Source: an uncultured Bacteroidales bacterium
Lineage (GTDB): Bacteria; Bacteroidota; Bacteroidia; Bacteroidales; UBA3824
Assembly: GCA_947168365.1 (NCBI GenBank)
Contig: CAMVLO010000002.1
Coordinates: 68,770-132,769 of the forward strand
Length of the DNA stretch: 64,000 nt
Direction: 5' to 3'
A program made the position numbers and the translations under genes. Position 1 is the stretch's first letter, and every line of letters starts with the position of its first letter. Positions 1 to 41,765 of this stretch are shown piece after piece. The notes beneath the pieces were generated by a model. The model did no database searches, was not told where the DNA came from, and saw nothing but the letters and a program-made list of their open reading frames with translations.

Positions 1-1214
1 TTCCTGACGTTGTTAACAAAGTATATGAAGTCAACAACTTTACATTTGGACCTTCTTACTTTATCCCAAAACCTGTAGATCCGCGTTTGATTACAGAAGT
101 TTCTACAGCAGTAGCCAAAGCCGCAATCGAATCGGGAGTAGCCCGTAAGAAAATAGAGGATTGGGATGCTTACAAATTGCATTTGAAACAGTTGATGGGT
201 TATGAATCAAAACTTTCAGCACAGCTCAACAACATCGCCCGTCAAGATCCGAAGAGAGTGGTATTTGCAGAAGGTATCCACCCGAATATGTTGAAAGCCG
301 CAGTTGAAGCCAAAAACGAAGGTATTTGTCATCCAATTTTGTTGGGAAATACCGAAAAAATTACTGCAATTGCCAAAGAAAACGAACTCAACCTTGACGG
401 TATCGAAATCATCAATCTTCGTGCAGACGGCGAAGCTGCAAGACGTGAAAAATATGCAAAAATCCTTACAGAAAAACGTCAACGCGAGGGCATGACATTC
501 CAAGAAGCCAACGACAAGATGTTCGATCGTAATTATTTTGGTATGATGATGGTAGAAACCGGCGATGCTGATGCCTTTATTACAGGTGTTTATACACGTT
601 ATCGTGATACAATTCAGATTGCAAAAGACGTAATTGGAATCAAGAAAGGTTACAACCATTTTGGAACAATGCACATCATGAATTCCGAAAAAGGTACATT
701 CTTCTTGGCAGATACGCTTATCAATCGTCATCCTGATGTAGATTCACTTGTTGACATCACCAAATTGGCAGCTGATACAGTAAAATTTTTCAACAACGAA
801 CCTGTTATCGCGATGTTGGCATATTCTAACTTTGGAGCTGACGAAGTTGGTACACCGGCTACAGTTCACAAAGCTACTGAGATTATTCATCAGCAGTGTC
901 CGGATTTGTTAGTTGACGGAGAAATGCAAGTAAACTTTGCTATCGATGACGAATTGCGAGACAAAACATTCCCGTTTAACCGTCTCAAAGGCAAAACTGT
1001 TAACACCTTGATATTCCCGAATTTAGGAAGTGCAAATGCAAGTTACAAACTGATGGCAGCCATGAACAACAATATCGAACTTATAGGACCTATCCAAATG
1101 GGTCTTAACAAACCAATTCACTTTATTGATTTTGAAAGTTCAGTAAATGATATTGTTAACATCGTTGCTGTGGCTGTAATTGATGCAATTACCGACAAGA
1201 AGAGAGCAAAATAA
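1..1214 (+). CDS. maeB: NADP-dependent malic enzyme, C-terminal part (5' end lies outside the window)
   Basis: Frame 3 is open from base 3 (PDVVNKVYEVNNFTFGPSYFIPKPVDPRLITEV...), so the listed ATG at 87 is internal. The rest resembles the phosphate-acetyltransferase-like C-terminal domain of MaeB-type malic enzymes. Stop at 1212-1214. Confidence 0.85.
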   Translation, partial: PDVVNKVYEVNNFTFGPSYFIPKPVDPRLITEVSTAVAKAAIESGVARKKIEDWDAYKLHLKQLMGYESKLSAQLNNIARQDPKRVVFAEGIHPNMLKAAVEAKNEGICHPILLGNTEKITAIAKENELNLDGIEIINLRADGEAARREKYAKILTEKRQREGMTFQEANDKMFDRNYFGMMMVETGDADAFITGVYTRYRDTIQIAKDVIGIKKGYNHFGTMHIMNSEKGTFFLADTLINRHPDVDSLVDITKLAADTVKFFNNEPVIAMLAYSNFGADEVGTPATVHKATEIIHQQCPDLLVDGEMQVNFAIDDELRDKTFPFNRLKGKTVNTLIFPNLGSANASYKLMAAMNNNIELIGPIQMGLNKPIHFIDFESSVNDIVNIVAVAVIDAITDKKRAK

Positions 1215-3902: not shown

Positions 3903-5531
3903 TCACTCCTCTTCCATCACCCAATCCACAATGTTCTTTTCCGCGCTTGAAAAACTTACGCCGACTTTTATTACTTGACGGTCGTCCATTTTGAAACGTC
4001 CGGCGTAATTTTTTACGTTTATCTGATTGAGAGCCGTTTGAGCGTCTTGGTCAATTTTAAATTCAAAAATATAAACATACTTCTTGTTAATCAAAATGCT
4101 GTCGGCACGGCCTTTTGAAAAATGCGCCTCGCTGATGATATATTCGCCCAAAATGGTGAACAACAAGTAGATAACGTTTTGAAAATCACGTTCAATAAGG
4201 CGGAGGCTCTTGTTTTGGGCGTATGGCAATGCGCTAAACAAGGCTTTCATACGCTCGATTGCGCCCTCAACATCGCCGGTGCGGAAATCTTCCTTGAATT
4301 TTGTGTAATCCAATCCTGACGGATTTTCCATTGTAGTGTAAAACTCCTTGGCAAGCGATTCAAAAAAACTCATTTCTACTTCGTAATCCGGAAATCCGAG
4401 AGTATATGACCTGTATTCTTTGTCATACGATTTGATTGTCAGATAGCCGGTGTAATACAGCAACGGCACGAGGTCTGTCCTAAACTCATCGTCCTTGTAG
4501 TCAATCAGAGCGTCTTTGCCATATTCCAAGTCGCCACGAAGAGTTTTGATGTCAAAATAAGTATTCTTAATCCGTTGCATAAGGATTGTGGGCGTTCCTG
4601 TTTTGTACCAATAATTTTGAAAATCTTTGCCCTGCAACGCAGAAAACAGACTCACGGGATTGAATACTTTGATTCCCCGCTCGTGAAACAAGTAGGAATC
4701 ATACCATTTTTTGAGTTCGGCGAGCATTTCGTCAAACGAAATTTCTTCCTGATTTGCAAAGGCTTGGATTTCGTCTTTGAAATACGACAACAATTCGTCA
4801 TGCGTAATACCGCAGACTGCCGAATAATTCTGTTCCAACGAGATGTCGTATGGCTGGTTTGTACCGCTGAAAATCGAAGTCTTGGCGTATTTTGTAACGC
4901 CCGTCAAGAAAACAAAACGGAAATACCTGTCGGCAGACTTCAACACCGAGAAAAAACCACGGTAAATTTCCTTGTCTGTTTCAAGATTAACGCTCTTAAT
5001 TAGCGGATTGTCATATTCATCCACAATCATCACGGTTTGAAGTCCGGTTTTCTCATATACGGCTTTCAAATCATACTCCAAACGAAACGACAACGAAAAA
5101 CTTTCGACCTTCATCGGTTCGTTTTTTATTTTTTCATCAAGAGCCTCAATCCTCTCCTTGATGGTACTCTCATCGAATTGTATACCGTTTCCGTCCTCGT
5201 ATTCCTGCAAGGTAACCCTAATTTTGTCGATAAGCGTTATTGACCCTACTGTATAGTCGCCGCTCACGAAGTCGAGGTAAATCACGGGATACTTAATCCA
5301 ATCTTTCTCCAAATCATAGATTTTCAAGCCTTCAAAGAGATGCTTCTTGCCTTCAAAATATGCGCGCAAAGTATTACAAAACAGACTTTTTCCAAATCTG
5401 CGCGGACGGGCAAGAAAATAGGTTTTGCCTTTATGTGCAAGATTATAAACATATTCAGTCTTGTCAACATAGACACATTTTTTATTTCTAAGGTCTTCAA
5501 AACTCTGTATGCTAAGCGGATAATTCATCAT
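3903..5531 (-). CDS. AAA-ATPase-like protein with C-terminal PD-(D/E)xK nuclease-like domain (DUF1703-type)
   Basis: N-terminus SFEDLRNKKCVYVDKTEYVYNL...YFLARPRRFGKSLF and C-terminus SEAHFSKGRADSILINKKYVYIFEFKID are the characteristic ends of this Bacteroides-abundant family. Confidence 0.85.
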   Translation of the reverse strand: MMNYPLSIQSFEDLRNKKCVYVDKTEYVYNLAHKGKTYFLARPRRFGKSLFCNTLRAYFEGKKHLFEGLKIYDLEKDWIKYPVIYLDFVSGDYTVGSITLIDKIRVTLQEYEDGNGIQFDESTIKERIEALDEKIKNEPMKVESFSLSFRLEYDLKAVYEKTGLQTVMIVDEYDNPLIKSVNLETDKEIYRGFFSVLKSADRYFRFVFLTGVTKYAKTSIFSGTNQPYDISLEQNYSAVCGITHDELLSYFKDEIQAFANQEEISFDEMLAELKKWYDSYLFHERGIKVFNPVSLFSALQGKDFQNYWYKTGTPTILMQRIKNTYFDIKTLRGDLEYGKDALIDYKDDEFRTDLVPLLYYTGYLTIKSYDKEYRSYTLGFPDYEVEMSFFESLAKEFYTTMENPSGLDYTKFKEDFRTGDVEGAIERMKALFSALPYAQNKSLRLIERDFQNVIYLLFTILGEYIISEAHFSKGRADSILINKKYVYIFEFKIDQDAQTALNQINVKNYAGRFKMDDRQVIKVGVSFSSAEKNIVDWVMEEE

Positions 5532-5608: not shown

Positions 5609-6277
5609 TTAGTTGCTGCGCCGAACTGGACGAACAGACCGTCCGTAGCAACGGTAATTTCCAAGTAGAAATAAGGATTCTGAGTCAGAGCCAAAGCAAG
5701 CATCCCAGGCTAATTCCGGCATGTGGCGCGATGAAGACCAATAGTAACCTTCGGAATCAGTTTTATGGATATTTAAATCGATGCGGAAGCCTGCCGCTGG
5801 AAGAAAAATTTTATTGTTGTTTGGTCCTTTTACCTCAAATCCATTCATACCGTTGCACGTAGTCCATACCCATGAGCACATATCTCTGAGTTCCATCCAC
5901 TGTGATAACGTTGGCATACACCAATCGCTACCCCAACAGACTGTGGCTACATCGTCGGAAGAGTCGAGGTCTTTTGTATTATAGGTAAAGCCTTTATTTG
6001 GGGATTCTTCACCGTATTTGGTAAGCATTTTATAGTCGCCATCTTTGCAATATTTATAGTTGCTCCACGAATACGTGTCTTTGGGTTCTGTTTCACCCCA
6101 TGCATAATAGTTGCCGTAATCTTCTGGATTATCTGCGCCGACATTGCAAGTCGCCCAAAGTGTACCGGAAGGTAATCCGAGGTCAACGTACTCGTGTTTT
6201 TGTTGTGCCGTTACGCTGTCAATATTCACTAATAATAATGTCAACAATAATAGTATAATTGAAGTTTGTCTTTTCAT
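5609..6277 (-). CDS. Secreted protein, FISUMP/DUF1566-like domain
   Basis: Signal peptide (ILLLLTLLLVNIDSVTAQ). Motifs YVDLGLPSGTLWATCNVGA, YYAWGE, WCMPT..W.EL, YYWSSS and GRSVRPVR. Confidence 0.7.
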   Translation of the reverse strand: MKRQTSIILLLLTLLLVNIDSVTAQQKHEYVDLGLPSGTLWATCNVGADNPEDYGNYYAWGETEPKDTYSWSNYKYCKDGDYKMLTKYGEESPNKGFTYNTKDLDSSDDVATVCWGSDWCMPTLSQWMELRDMCSWVWTTCNGMNGFEVKGPNNNKIFLPAAGFRIDLNIHKTDSEGYYWSSSRHMPELAWDACFGSDSESLFLLGNYRCYGRSVRPVRRSN

Positions 6278-6345
6278 GATTGTAATCGTTTAATTTTTCA
6301 AAGTTACAAATTTAGTAAAAAAATATATAAAATATGAGAGAACCA

Positions 6346-6430
6346 TATCTTCCATACAAGATAAAAATACCTAAAAAGTATCTTGTATACAAGATAAAAT
6401 CACCTAAAAAGTATCTTGTATATAAGATAC
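6346..6430. promoter_or_regulatory. Three 18-20 bp dyad-symmetric sites at a 33-bp period (operator-like array)
   Basis: TATCTTccATACAAGATA (6346-6363), perfect palindrome TATCTTGTATACAAGATA (6379-6396) and GTATCTTGTATAtAAGATAC (6411-6430). Centres at 6354.5, 6387.5 and 6420.5. Confidence 0.6.
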
Positions 6431-6436
6431 TTTTTG

Positions 6437-6444
6437 TATATTTG
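6437..6444 (+). promoter_or_regulatory. Bacteroidetes-type -7 promoter box (TAnnTTTG)
   Basis: TATATTTG lies 17 nt upstream of the ATG at 6461 and directly abuts the third dyad. Confidence 0.5.
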
Positions 6445-6460
6445 CAGAAAAATTATTGAT

Positions 6461-7717
6461 ATGGACAAAGAGTTTGTAAGAAATATTATCGTTGAAAATC
6501 AACAACTTATACAGTCAATTGAGTTGATTGAACGTCCTTTTGAGTTTGAGGACAATGGAAACTATGTGTTTGTGGGTGTTCGTCAAGCGGGAAAATCTTA
6601 TATGCTTTATCAAAGGGCAAAACAATTGTTAAAAGCCGGTTACGACATCGACCAAATCGTTTATATCAGTTTCGACGACGAGCGTATCAACGAAATTAAG
6701 TCAAACGAACTTGATATTATTATACAAGCACACAGGCTTTTAACCGACTTGCAGCCTGTGTTGTTTCTCGACGAAATTCAAAATATCGATGGTTGGGAGC
6801 ATTTTGCCCGTCGCCTTGCCAACGAAAAATATACTGTGTATATCACGGGCAGCAATGCCAAAATGCTTAGCCGCGACATTCAAACAACTTTGGGCGGAAG
6901 ATATTGGGACATAGCTGTTTATCCGTTTTCGTTTGCGGAGTTTCTGAAAGCAAAGAATGTTAAATTGGAAAAGAATTGGCAGTTTTCAAAAACTCAAGGA
7001 ACAGTGGCAAGAGTGTTTGAAGAATATTTCTATTTTGGCGGTTTTCCTGAATTGCTAAACATCAAAGCCAAACGGCAATGGTTGACAAATATTTATAACA
7101 AAATATTTTTTAGCGACATCGTGGTTCGCAATTCTGTTAGAAGCGAAGAGGCTCTACGAATCACTGTAAAAAGACTTGCCACGTGTGTAATGCAGCCCAC
7201 ATCTTACAATCGACTTACTAATTTGGTTAAGTCGACCGGCATAAATATCAACGCTACCACTGTTGCCAATTTTATACAATATCTAAAAGATGCGTGTCTG
7301 TTGTTTTCGATAGAAAATTACGCTGATAAATTTGTTGACAAACAGACGACTAAGAAACATTATTTTGTTGACAACGGATTATTGAATCTGTTTTTAGCTA
7401 CCCCCGAAACGGCTCTTTTGGAGAATATTTGTGCAATATTTTTATATAAGAATTTCGGTAGCGGGTTGTATTATTACAACAAAAACATTGAGGTTGATTT
7501 TTTTGTTGCTGACGAAAAAATCGGTGTTCAAGTGTCGTACAGCATTGATGATAGCGAAACAATGGAACGTGAACTCAAAGCGTTGGTAGCTCTCAACAAA
7601 TTTTTCCCTCTAAACCGGGCTTTGGTTATAACCAAAAACACGGAAGAAACCGTTGAATACCAAGGTCTGAAAATTGAGATTATACCTATTTGGAAATTTG
7701 TGTTATTATTCTGCTAA
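6461..7717 (+). CDS. AAA+ ATPase with DUF4143-type C-terminal domain
   Basis: VGVRQAGKSYML P-loop and LFLDEIQ Walker B, with the typical ~400-aa AAA_14/DUF4143 architecture. I prefer the ATG at 6461 (MDKEFV...) over the TTG at 6416, which lies inside the palindrome. Confidence 0.85.
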   Translation: MDKEFVRNIIVENQQLIQSIELIERPFEFEDNGNYVFVGVRQAGKSYMLYQRAKQLLKAGYDIDQIVYISFDDERINEIKSNELDIIIQAHRLLTDLQPVLFLDEIQNIDGWEHFARRLANEKYTVYITGSNAKMLSRDIQTTLGGRYWDIAVYPFSFAEFLKAKNVKLEKNWQFSKTQGTVARVFEEYFYFGGFPELLNIKAKRQWLTNIYNKIFFSDIVVRNSVRSEEALRITVKRLATCVMQPTSYNRLTNLVKSTGININATTVANFIQYLKDACLLFSIENYADKFVDKQTTKKHYFVDNGLLNLFLATPETALLENICAIFLYKNFGSGLYYYNKNIEVDFFVADEKIGVQVSYSIDDSETMERELKALVALNKFFPLNRALVITKNTEETVEYQGLKIEIIPIWKFVLLFC

Positions 7718-40154: not shown

Positions 40155-40892
40155 TTAAGAATTTGTTACCTCCGTTTTTACCTCGGTGTCAGTAGACACT
40201 TCGGTAGTAGAGTTTTTGTTTAATCCCTTCGATTTGTCAAACAATTCGTTGATAATCAATGCAAACTCGTTGCATGACTTAGGAGCTATATAAGCATTAT
40301 ATGCGTTGACATAATCTGCAAATTCGCCCCATGCTTTGTTCAAAGCATCGCGTGCGCCCGGTTTGTAACCCTTATTCGCTTGGTAATAATTACCTCTTAA
40401 GTCGTATAAACTTTCGTGTTTATCCAACAAATTTGCTACTATTGACAATAAGATGTCAATACTAAGTGTTTTGAGAGCCGGTTTCCCAAGTTGATTAAAC
40501 TCGTTTAATTGTCGTTTAATTTTTTCAATTTTCTTAAACAAATTATTTCCTTTGAGAATGCCGTATTTGTCAACAATCTCTTTGGCTGTCTTTGCGAGAT
40601 CCGAAATTTGTGTTTCCGGATTATACACATTGGCAGTGATAATCTGTCTAATTGAATTAAAGACATTAAACATCTGTTTCCTCACCTCGGTAAGCTCTAC
40701 CGTATAAGGGTTGGTTCTCTGTTTTTCAACAGCTGTTACCAACAAATTGTAGTTTTCAGTGAAATTTTTAGCATATTCACTGTTTCGTACTTCTTCAGGC
40801 AACTTTCCCAAAGTTGCGAGTGCTCGTGCCGCGAAGTACAGCGTTTCTAGGTTCGAAAACCTAACGAGACTTTTTAAACAAAAGTAGTTCAT
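40155..40892 (-). CDS. Hypothetical all-helical protein (possibly the Bacteroidota-specific DUF6261-like family; from memory only)
   Basis: 245-aa ORF with an ATG start and its own terminator. Segment VRNSEYAKNF resembles the LRNxEHxxF motif of that family. Thr/Glu/Val-rich tail. Confidence 0.6.
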   Translation of the reverse strand: MNYFCLKSLVRFSNLETLYFAARALATLGKLPEEVRNSEYAKNFTENYNLLVTAVEKQRTNPYTVELTEVRKQMFNVFNSIRQIITANVYNPETQISDLAKTAKEIVDKYGILKGNNLFKKIEKIKRQLNEFNQLGKPALKTLSIDILLSIVANLLDKHESLYDLRGNYYQANKGYKPGARDALNKAWGEFADYVNAYNAYIAPKSCNEFALIINELFDKSKGLNKNSTTEVSTDTEVKTEVTNS

Positions 40893-41239: not shown

Positions 41240-41765
41240 GTTTGAAAAATTCTTGGAATTCTTGAAAATTGTATCGCTACGAGAAATGAAAATTCTTGGA
41301 ATTCTTGAAAATTGTATCGCTACAAGAAATGAAATTACCGGAAATTATTAATCTTGTATCGCTACAAGAAATGAAATTACCGGAAATTATTAATCTTGTA
41401 TCGCTACAAGAAATGAAATTACCGGAAATTATTAATCTTGTATCGCTACAAGAAATGAAATTACCGAAAATTATTAATCTTGTATAGCTACAAGAAATGA
41501 AATTACCGGAAATTATTAATCTTGTATCGCTACAAGAAATGAAATTACCGAAAATTATTAATCTTGTATCGTTACAATAAAGGAAATTACCGGAAATTAT
41601 TAATCTTGTATCGCTACAATAAAGGAAATTTCCGGAAATTATTAATCTTGTATCGCTACAATAAAGGAATTTTCTGAAAATTATTAATCTTGTCACGCGA
41701 CAAGAAAGGAAATTATCGGGAATTATGAATCTTGTTGCGACAATATTTTGTATTTTCTGACATCT
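41240..41765. repeat. Tandem array of 12 units, 42-bp period, two dyad motifs per unit
   Basis: The GTATCGCTAC core recurs at 41271, 41314, 41356, 41398, 41440, 41482, 41524, 41566, 41608, 41650, 41692 and 41734. Consensus unit: CTTGTATCGCTACAAGAAATGAAATTACCGGAAATTATTAAT. Confidence 0.9.

Follow-up and report, generated by a model that had tools for sequence, protein, structure and literature searches.

Three dyad-symmetric sites stand in tandem across the promoter of a DUF4143 ATPase gene in the 64,000-nucleotide stretch of an uncultured Bacteroidales genome that was analysed here (the window, at its full length). The question raised by this locus is which protein reads these sites and to what end. 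A preliminary description had seen in them a cooperative operator for a dimeric regulator, possibly the same one that recognises a 42-bp array located 35 kb away in the window. Comparison with related loci, together with a structure model of the ATPase, suggests another reader. The array is probably the private cognate site of the adjacent protein, an ATPase with AAA_14, winged-helix and DUF4143 parts that belongs to the defence candidate PDC-S01, and it most likely serves as an autorepression operator.

The three dyads and their spacing of exactly 33 bp (centres at 6354.5, 6387.5 and 6420.5; Table 1) had been described before and were recovered in two ways. Tandem Repeats Finder (TRF) reports a 33-bp unit in 2.5 copies with a score of 133, 90% matches and 0 indels, and a dyad search allowing up to three mismatches returned three matches where 0.03 are expected from shuffled sequences. 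The middle dyad is the perfect 18-bp palindrome it had been taken for, and the register of the distal one is matched in seven orthologues. The third dyad does lie beside the -7 box and the ATG as reported, and it is really a 28-bp palindrome that ends 2 bp before the box. TAnnTTTG is the -7 consensus of Bacteroides promoters; the box of the ATPase gene begins 24 bp before the ATG at 6461, and the centre of the third dyad is located 16.5 bp upstream of its first base, over the expected -33 region. The open reading frame (ORF) finder also offers a longer TTG start at 6416, which would cross the operator, but the ATG was taken as the start since all orthologues and homologues align from there. 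Dyad-symmetric sites therefore overlap the core promoter of the candidate regulator gene itself, as is seen from the 28-bp palindrome next to the -7 box and from the register that is kept in the family. The two -7-type boxes of the divergently transcribed neighbour fall outside the array, which is located upstream of that gene's promoter.

Orthologues with 79–94% identity are present in seven genomes of the same genus, each with three to five dyads. Their centres are found at -39/-40, -72/-73 and -105/-106 from the ATG, with additional ones at -139 and -172, and the arrays are followed by the same TTTTGTATATTTGCAG promoter. Among 25 units from these orthologues, about 22 bp (AAAAGTWTCTTGYATAYAAGAWA) carry much information and the 8–9-bp spacer carries little, and copy number changes by whole 33-bp units. 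With a threshold of at least 73% identity, nine of 24 same-genus genomes hold an orthologue of the ATPase, and a dyad array was found upstream in all eight of those that were read.

Close paralogues in the same genome have arrays in the same place upstream, each with a sequence of its own: TTCAGTCTACTGAA in three copies (contig C41), TGYAGTSTATASACTRCA in three copies (C27; TGYAGTSTATA... type), TTTTGTGTTCTGTATATAGAACACAAAA in two copies (C65) and direct repeats of AAAATTTGTAAAATAGYGCGTTTT in three copies (C26). Altogether, this genome has 14 full-length DUF4143 genes, and at least 10 of them have their own, differing 32–34-bp arrays. As a control, 1183 upstream regions of this genome were screened with the same repeat threshold. 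A 32–34-bp repeat was present in 18 of them, and 12 of these 18 are located upstream of an AAA_14/DUF4143 gene, a number that includes the window's own intergenic region, counted from both sides. Two more precede truncated ATPase remnants (C8 and C18), and the remaining four are weak and mostly AT-rich. What was observed is thus an association in cis between the gene family and the arrays, with sequences specific to each paralogue. The two remnants carry the repeat AAAAACGGAGTACAACTCCYGATTTTACA at 32/33-bp spacing before a short ATPase-like ORF (C8:39780-39983 and C18:54520-54719); the ORFs begin with MI(D/N)RYLT..., one runs to FGARQTGK followed by a stop codon, and they appear to be remnants that have retained their arrays. 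A second, more distant DUF4143 clade, with a canonical ExK and the N-terminal sequence KGARQxGKT, has non-palindromic direct repeats at 32–34 bp and no dyads (C10:43581, C19:30643, C28:2945, C30:24682, C50:7317 and C51:18583).

The sequence of the window's dyad is confined to this locus. A genome scan for the motif, suggested in the preliminary description, gave no regulon: in the 3.98-Mb genome the full 8+8 dyad is present only at 6380-6395, and with up to two mismatches the 18-mer is found in the array and at one other site only. With up to three mismatches there are 13 genome sites, compared to three in a Markov-1 genome, and one of the 13 (C4:70095) lies directly upstream of a decayed paralogue of the window ATPase. 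A genome-wide regulon was rejected, since the dyad is essentially unique and the only related site fronts a decayed copy of the same gene. This copy (C4:70095-70400; MNKYLVRNIIVENQQLIQ...) is heavily decayed, with frameshifts and deletions, and the dyad TTTCTTGCATACAAGAGA is still found 15 bp upstream of its ATG. A dyad with a spacer of four nucleotides at C17:51570 falls within apparently coding DNA and seems to be a chance match.

Distant homologues show the same arrangement. We collected 80 loci with 42–59% identity, mostly from Bacteroidales but also from metagenome-assembled genomes labelled Treponema, Kiritimatiellae, Anaerolineaceae and Firmicutes; 78 of them had usable upstream regions. 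A direct repeat of at least 15/18 was present in 41 of the 78, with a period of 32–34 bp in 36 of these 41 and of exactly 33 bp in 30. Automated palindrome picks were noisy and included inter-dyad palindromes and unrelated hairpins; half-sites were therefore curated by eye. At least two dyads were found in 50 of the 72 homologues with curated half-sites, and 56 of the 72 spacings between neighbouring dyad centres in this set are 33 bp (68 are 32–34 bp). Relative to the first base of the TAnnTTTG box, which 59 of the 72 homologues have, the dyad centres at these 59 loci cluster at -14 to -19, -47 to -51 and -80 to -83 (about -17, -49 and -82), and one sub-family has an extra cluster at +15. A spacer of the lattice thus accommodates the -7 box, with the -33 region under the proximal dyad, a geometry that would be expected for a repressor site. 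The number of dyads varies from one to five across the family without a fixed stoichiometry. In the limited literature that could be searched on DUF4143, PDC-S01, COG1373 and AAA_14, no upstream arrays are described, and a 33-bp lattice with private sequences across a large ATPase family seems to be undescribed in the publications found.

The assignment of the gene as a DUF4143 ATPase was borne out by Pfam. AAA_14 (PF13173, E 1e-34) covers residues 34–162, and DUF4143 (PF13635) matches with E 3e-12 and 47.1 bits, compared to a cut-off of 28.1. Walker A (GVRQAGKS) and Walker B (LFLDEIQ) motifs are present, with G44, K45, D104 and E105 unchanged throughout 83 sequences. The PADLOC model PDLC04787 for PDC-S01 matches residues 35–415 of the 418 with E 7.3e-94, six further PDC-S01 models match as well, and by every sequence test the gene is a member of PDC-S01/COG1373. 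PDC-S01 reportedly ranks fourth in frequency among defence candidates of prokaryotes, as a candidate pending validation (PMC12988326), and first among single loci of rumen genomes (PMC12988326, PMC13356809). Searches with the ATPase sequence gave no NCBIfam match and no PDB sequence match, so that no solved structure of a family member was found. An AlphaFold2 model was built on an 83-sequence alignment (predicted local distance difference test score 93.8, predicted template modelling score 0.91). The model shows an AAA+ module in residues 1–200, then lid helices, a predicted winged helix (Table 1) and an alpha/beta domain in residues 316–409, the counterpart of the PD-(D/E)XK portion in DUF4143. 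The best PDB folds in a Foldseek search were DNA-bound ORC/Cdc6 proteins (8s0e_A, 2qby_A/B, 2v1u_A) and the archaeal ATPases 2fna and 2qen.

The DUF4143 family has been placed in the PD-(D/E)XK superfamily (PMC3424549). In the clade of the window ATPase the canonical nuclease motif D...(D/E)-x-K was not found: the position of (D/E)xK is taken by Q357-V-S/C in 83 of 83 aligned members, while E321, E344 and D346 vary little or not at all in the same 83 sequences (residues 321–360, window 7421-7540). Judging from the alignment, the nuclease centre of this clade is non-canonical. A distant paralogue (C51:18195-19496, locus L010) has the canonical ELDF...EIK. K412 is nearly invariant in the clade and might substitute in the nuclease motif.

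Which protein reads the dyads can be narrowed down from the gene contexts. Among the seven orthologue loci no regulator gene is conserved beside the array: the downstream nitroreductase gene is common to one of the seven, the upstream 222-aa gene to none, and within the genus the orthologue modules occur in at least four differing gene contexts. Since no neighbour is conserved and the sites are specific for each paralogue, the module should encode its own reader, for which the predicted winged helix of the ATPase is the sole candidate. We compared pairwise differences of protein and half-site in 12-residue windows by partial correlation, with the rest of the protein controlled. With the 72 curated half-sites, the top nine of 407 windows are all located in residues 253–275, that is the turn of the helix-turn-helix (HTH) and the start of the recognition helix; among single columns, N264 ranks second. 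When sites were defined automatically and left uncurated, in two ways, the maximum fell in the same place (window 259–270). Recognition regions and half-sites go together in classes: K(V/I)G(K/T)xT(V/I)INY with TTTGT(C/T)(T/C)TG, KISTDTVIDY with ATCGA, KIK(T/A/S)(D/E)T with TCC(T/C)(T/C)TA, I(A/S/T)R(E/N)T with ATGCAG or ATGTC, and S(C/T)(S/N)xxS with TTTATT(C/T)(G/A). A second covariation peak was found in the AAA+ domain, in residues 68–85 (window 6662-6715), between beta2 and the Walker B strand. Its position is reminiscent of the DNA-contacting initiator-specific motif (ISM) of Orc1/Cdc6; the ISM of Orc1 contacts DNA.

The dyad symmetry, the 33-bp phasing, the fixed -7 register and the conservation of dyads but not of spacers in orthologues lead us to regard the array as a phased, promoter-overlapping operator that would be read by a symmetric, dimeric DNA-binding module, and to this extent the operator proposed earlier is retained. 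We infer that the ATPase itself binds, that it binds as a dimer with the corresponding stoichiometry, and that the sign of regulation is repression. Two winged-helix domains would then read the two arms of each dyad, with a half-site of about 5'-GTWTCTTGYA-3', and the half-site cores, about 12 bp apart, would lie in adjacent major grooves on one face of the DNA; the variable positions would be those 4–8 from the dyad centre. The spacing of 33 bp, about three helical turns, would put successive dimers on the same DNA face, so that AAA+ modules might bridge neighbouring dimers and make binding cooperative. Occupation of the promoter-proximal dyad, which is the most symmetric one, would cover the -33 region and switch off the gene's own transcription (negative autoregulation).

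Table 1. Location of the array, its promoter, the ATPase gene and related features (window positions unless a contig is named).
Feature	Position	Strand	Basis and remarks
33-bp tandem array with three dyads	6346..6429	.	unit AAAAG-TATCTTGTATACAAGATA-AAAATCACCT; TRF and sequence reading
Distal dyad 1, TATCTTCCATACAAGATA	6346..6363	.	2 mismatches relative to a perfect palindrome; centre -106 from ATG
Dyad 2, TATCTTGTATACAAGATA	6379..6396	.	perfect 18-bp palindrome; centre -73 from ATG; unique in genome
Dyad 3, promoter-proximal, extended 28-bp palindrome AAAAGTATCTTGTATATAAGATACTTTT	6407..6434	.	core TATCTTGTATATAAGATA, 6412-6429; sequence and family register
Bacteroidota-type -7 box TATATTTG (TAnnTTTG), ATPase promoter	6437..6444	+	kept in 7/7 orthologues
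AAA_14, winged-helix and DUF4143 (PD-(D/E)XK-like) ATPase, 418 aa, PADLOC candidate PDC-S01	6461..7717	+	Pfam, PADLOC, AlphaFold2, Foldseek
Predicted winged-helix coding region, residues 229-302	7145..7366	+	DSSP of AlphaFold2 model; helices 229-241 and 249-257, recognition helix 265-277 (7253-7291), wing strands 281-302
Two -7-type boxes, TAACTTTG and TAAATTTG, of the divergent 222-aa secreted-protein gene	6299..6314	-	sequence and ORFs
DUF6261-linked arrays	window 41269-41735; contigs C3, C2, C7, C75, C28, C52, C63, C21, C62, C32, C54		

Several points weigh against autorepression by the ATPase. The covariation is modest, with a partial r of about 0.2, and label permutations equal it in 14–15 of 200 trials; moreover, co-inheritance of gene and site inflates any signal of this kind. 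We therefore count it as supportive but not decisive. The window protein and the protein of locus L086 both have the core TATCTTGT, yet several residues of their recognition regions differ; thus, there would be no simple recognition code. Winged helices of the Orc1/Cdc6 type often bind as monomers. Finally, orphan arrays persist in relatives without the cognate ATPase; their dyads might serve some purpose unconnected with the ATPase or simply be slow to decay.

Orphan arrays were found in four related genomes (G006, G016, G007 and G024), none of which has an ATPase orthologue with at least 73% identity. In the close relative G006 (contig C2, L124, 3150-3350) the flanking proteins are 96–97% identical to those of the window and the order is 222-aa gene, two dyads, nitroreductase gene; promoter and ATPase coding sequence are missing exactly from the end of the last dyad to the stop codon, with an 8-bp filler in their place. 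The same empty site is present in G016 (C55, L018) with a different filler of 22 bp. In G007 (C50, L123) orphan dyad pairs at 2019-2065 and 4062-4108 bracket a PF09820 (AAA-ATPase_like) gene, and G024 (C349, L025) agrees with the G001 orthologue locus through the left flank and two dyads, beyond which its DNA is unrelated. All breaks are located within about 5 bp of a dyad edge, which may reflect recombination at a bound site or ascertainment bias. The 57–58% identical paralogues of G016 and G012 are unlikely to bind the orphan arrays in trans, as the operators of those paralogues differ.

Alternatively, the array might offer an ORC-like, ATP-dependent oligomer a platform to assemble on, with a main purpose other than gene control, for instance storing on the DNA an inactive defence complex that infection would release or activate, or marking self DNA. 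The likeness in fold to DNA-bound Orc1/Cdc6 proteins, the position of the gene next to its own repeated sites, as at archaeal origins, the covariation peak in the AAA+ domain and the standing of the family as a defence-island candidate would all fit such a platform. However, the consistent overlap with the core promoter is most simply explained by regulation, copy numbers from one to five do not point to an oligomer of fixed stoichiometry, and the literature searched holds no evidence of a defence activity of PDC-S01. We consider a platform of this kind unlikely.

Another explanation starts from the empty sites: the dyads could primarily be recombination or cassette-junction sites, either attC-like or targets of the ATPase's own nuclease-like domain, at which promoter and ATPase gene are gained, lost or exchanged, with regulation being secondary. 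The exact loss from dyad to stop codon in G006, the empty site in G016, the bracketing dyad pairs in G007 and the break directly after the dyad in G024 are what such an exchange would leave behind; in addition, the module occurs in at least four contexts in the genus and its protein carries a PD-(D/E)XK-like domain. But recombination leaves both the fixed -7 register and the 33-bp phasing of the whole family unexplained, and the empty sites retain the array, unlike a cassette that brings its own site. The nuclease motif reads D346...Q357-x-S/C without a lysine in all 83 aligned members. Furthermore, the orphans were found by searching with the array and the gap between dyad and coding sequence is only about 40 bp, so that ascertainment bias has to be considered. 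A primary role in recombination is thus quite unlikely, and autorepression by the adjacent ATPase remains the preferred reading.

The idea that a separate dimeric regulator of the HTH or ribbon-helix-helix type binds both the 33-bp array and the 42-bp array at 41269-41735, thereby coupling the two loci, has become very improbable. It was based on the arms TCTTGTA and TACAAGA, which are indeed seen again in the 42-bp array, set 4 bp apart, although the right arm there reads TACAAGAA and not TACAAGAT. Only 7+7 nucleotides and one extra left base are common to the arms of both arrays, and the longest word they share is the 9-mer ATCTTGTAT. Words of at least nine nucleotides are, however, shared by 10 of 150 real pairs of an ATPase array and a DUF6261 array (6.7%), compared to 2.5% with shuffled units (P about 0.025), which puts the 9-mer within the background; TCTTGT is a common half-site core in the ATPase family. 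In addition, a rigid dimer could not fit arms with no spacer and arms with a spacer of four nucleotides alike, and, as described above, no regulator gene is conserved beside the 33-bp array.

The 42-bp array has relatives of a different kind. It consists of 11.1 copies of 42 bp and has a DUF6261 gene (40155-40892, minus strand) on one side and htpG on the other. Of 17 matches to DUF6261 (PF19775) in this genome, 15 have their own upstream tandem array with a unit that differs each time; the period is 41–43 bp except for one of 84 bp (C32), and the arrays have 2–13 copies and are located 0.1–1 kb away. The window's 42-bp array is thereby one of at least 15 private arrays of about 42 bp that are tied to DUF6261 genes. 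Its sequence was found in none of the 24 same-genus genomes, though nine of them hold the ATPase orthologue, with the dyad array in all eight that were read; hence it is not conserved together with the ATPase array in relatives. Both classes are tandem, phased, dyad-containing, private to a paralogue and intergenic in the same genome, but in this comparison the DUF6261 arrays differ in period (42 versus 33 bp), in having 4–13 copies and in lying 300–900 bp from a different gene family. Arm spacing, array class, relatives and shared-word background thus all speak against a link of the two loci; the resemblance is most likely coincidental and the two systems separate. A further array of about 42 bp with the related dyad AATCTTGTCGCGTGACAA was seen at C28:47190-47560, not beside a called DUF6261 gene but between a 104-aa ORF and an AAA-ATPase_like gene (PF09820-like by its N-terminal sequence).

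It is barely credible that the palindromes function as hairpins of RNA or DNA, as in a terminator, attenuator or small RNA, or stem from neutral tandem duplication: perfect palindromes would fold and TTTTT follows the last one, but their stems are AT-rich and lack loops, transcripts are not expected to cross dyads that lie upstream of both -7 boxes between diverging genes, and neutral duplication cannot explain why phasing and register are kept across 42–94% identical homologues with differing sequences. A known RNA family or terminator was rejected as well, as Rfam gave only weak miRNA-like chance matches that fell far short of the gathering scores, and there was no terminator call.

On its other side the array faces a divergent operon on the minus strand, with a gene for a 222-aa secreted protein without a family match (5609-6277) and one for a protein with AAA-ATPase_like and PDDEXK_9 domains (3903-5531). 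The array is thus flanked by two unrelated genes of the ATPase-nuclease type, and in G006 it fronts the divergent operon alone.

With PDC-S01/COG1373 the window gene shares a near-full-length match to PDLC04787 and both Pfam domains above their cut-offs. It differs in that PDC-S01 appears as a lone orphan gene, with no word of arrays upstream, in the published descriptions found, and in the non-canonical nuclease motif of its clade. To archaeal Orc1/Cdc6, which are among the best folds (2qby, 2v1u), and their origin recognition boxes the modelled protein is similar in the order of AAA+ module and winged helix, and in that the gene adjoins several phased copies of its own dyad-containing site; a possible parallel is DNA contact by winged helix and AAA+ module together, as the second covariation peak might indicate. 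However, no Cdc6/ORC match was found in Pfam or among PDB sequences, and whole-chain TM-scores are 0.24–0.31, so that the resemblance to Orc1/Cdc6 appears to be one of predicted fold only and not of sequence membership. The window ATPase has an extra C-terminal PD-(D/E)XK-like domain, its sites overlap a promoter instead of flanking an unwinding element, and there are about 14 ATPase paralogues per genome, in ordinary intergenic regions and with private sites.

Phased autoregulatory operators are known from Ss-LrpB, an Lrp-type regulator with three regularly spaced boxes, from the C-boxes of restriction-modification controller proteins, from toxin-antitoxin operators and from dnaA with its DnaA boxes. 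As in these, several dyads on the same DNA face lie over the promoter of the presumed regulator itself, and gene and site travel together. The differences are that the presumed regulator is not a small repressor but a 418-aa AAA+ ATPase with a nuclease-like domain and that the 33-bp spacing is fixed across a huge, sequence-diverse family.

For this genome, the results remove the proposed regulatory link between two loci of the window and reveal two independent classes of private phased arrays, one of 33 bp with DUF4143 genes and one of 42 bp with DUF6261 genes. A more far-reaching view, rather unlikely in our opinion, is that PDC-S01 constitutes a vast unrecognised class of sequence-specific, Orc1/Cdc6-like ATPases whose private promoter arrays serve both as platform for an ATP-dependent oligomer and as recombination hot spot, where promoter and gene are repeatedly excised or exchanged at the array edge. 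The array-retaining empty sites in G006, G016, G007 and G024 would thereby be explained, and the natural arrays would represent a catalogue of the family's DNA-recognition code. If each gene indeed has its own phased array, a defined DNA ligand would be at hand for electrophoretic mobility shift assays, footprinting and cryo-electron microscopy, the expression control of PDC-S01 genes would become predictable, and hundreds of natural protein-site pairs would be available for deciphering the recognition code of the winged helix.

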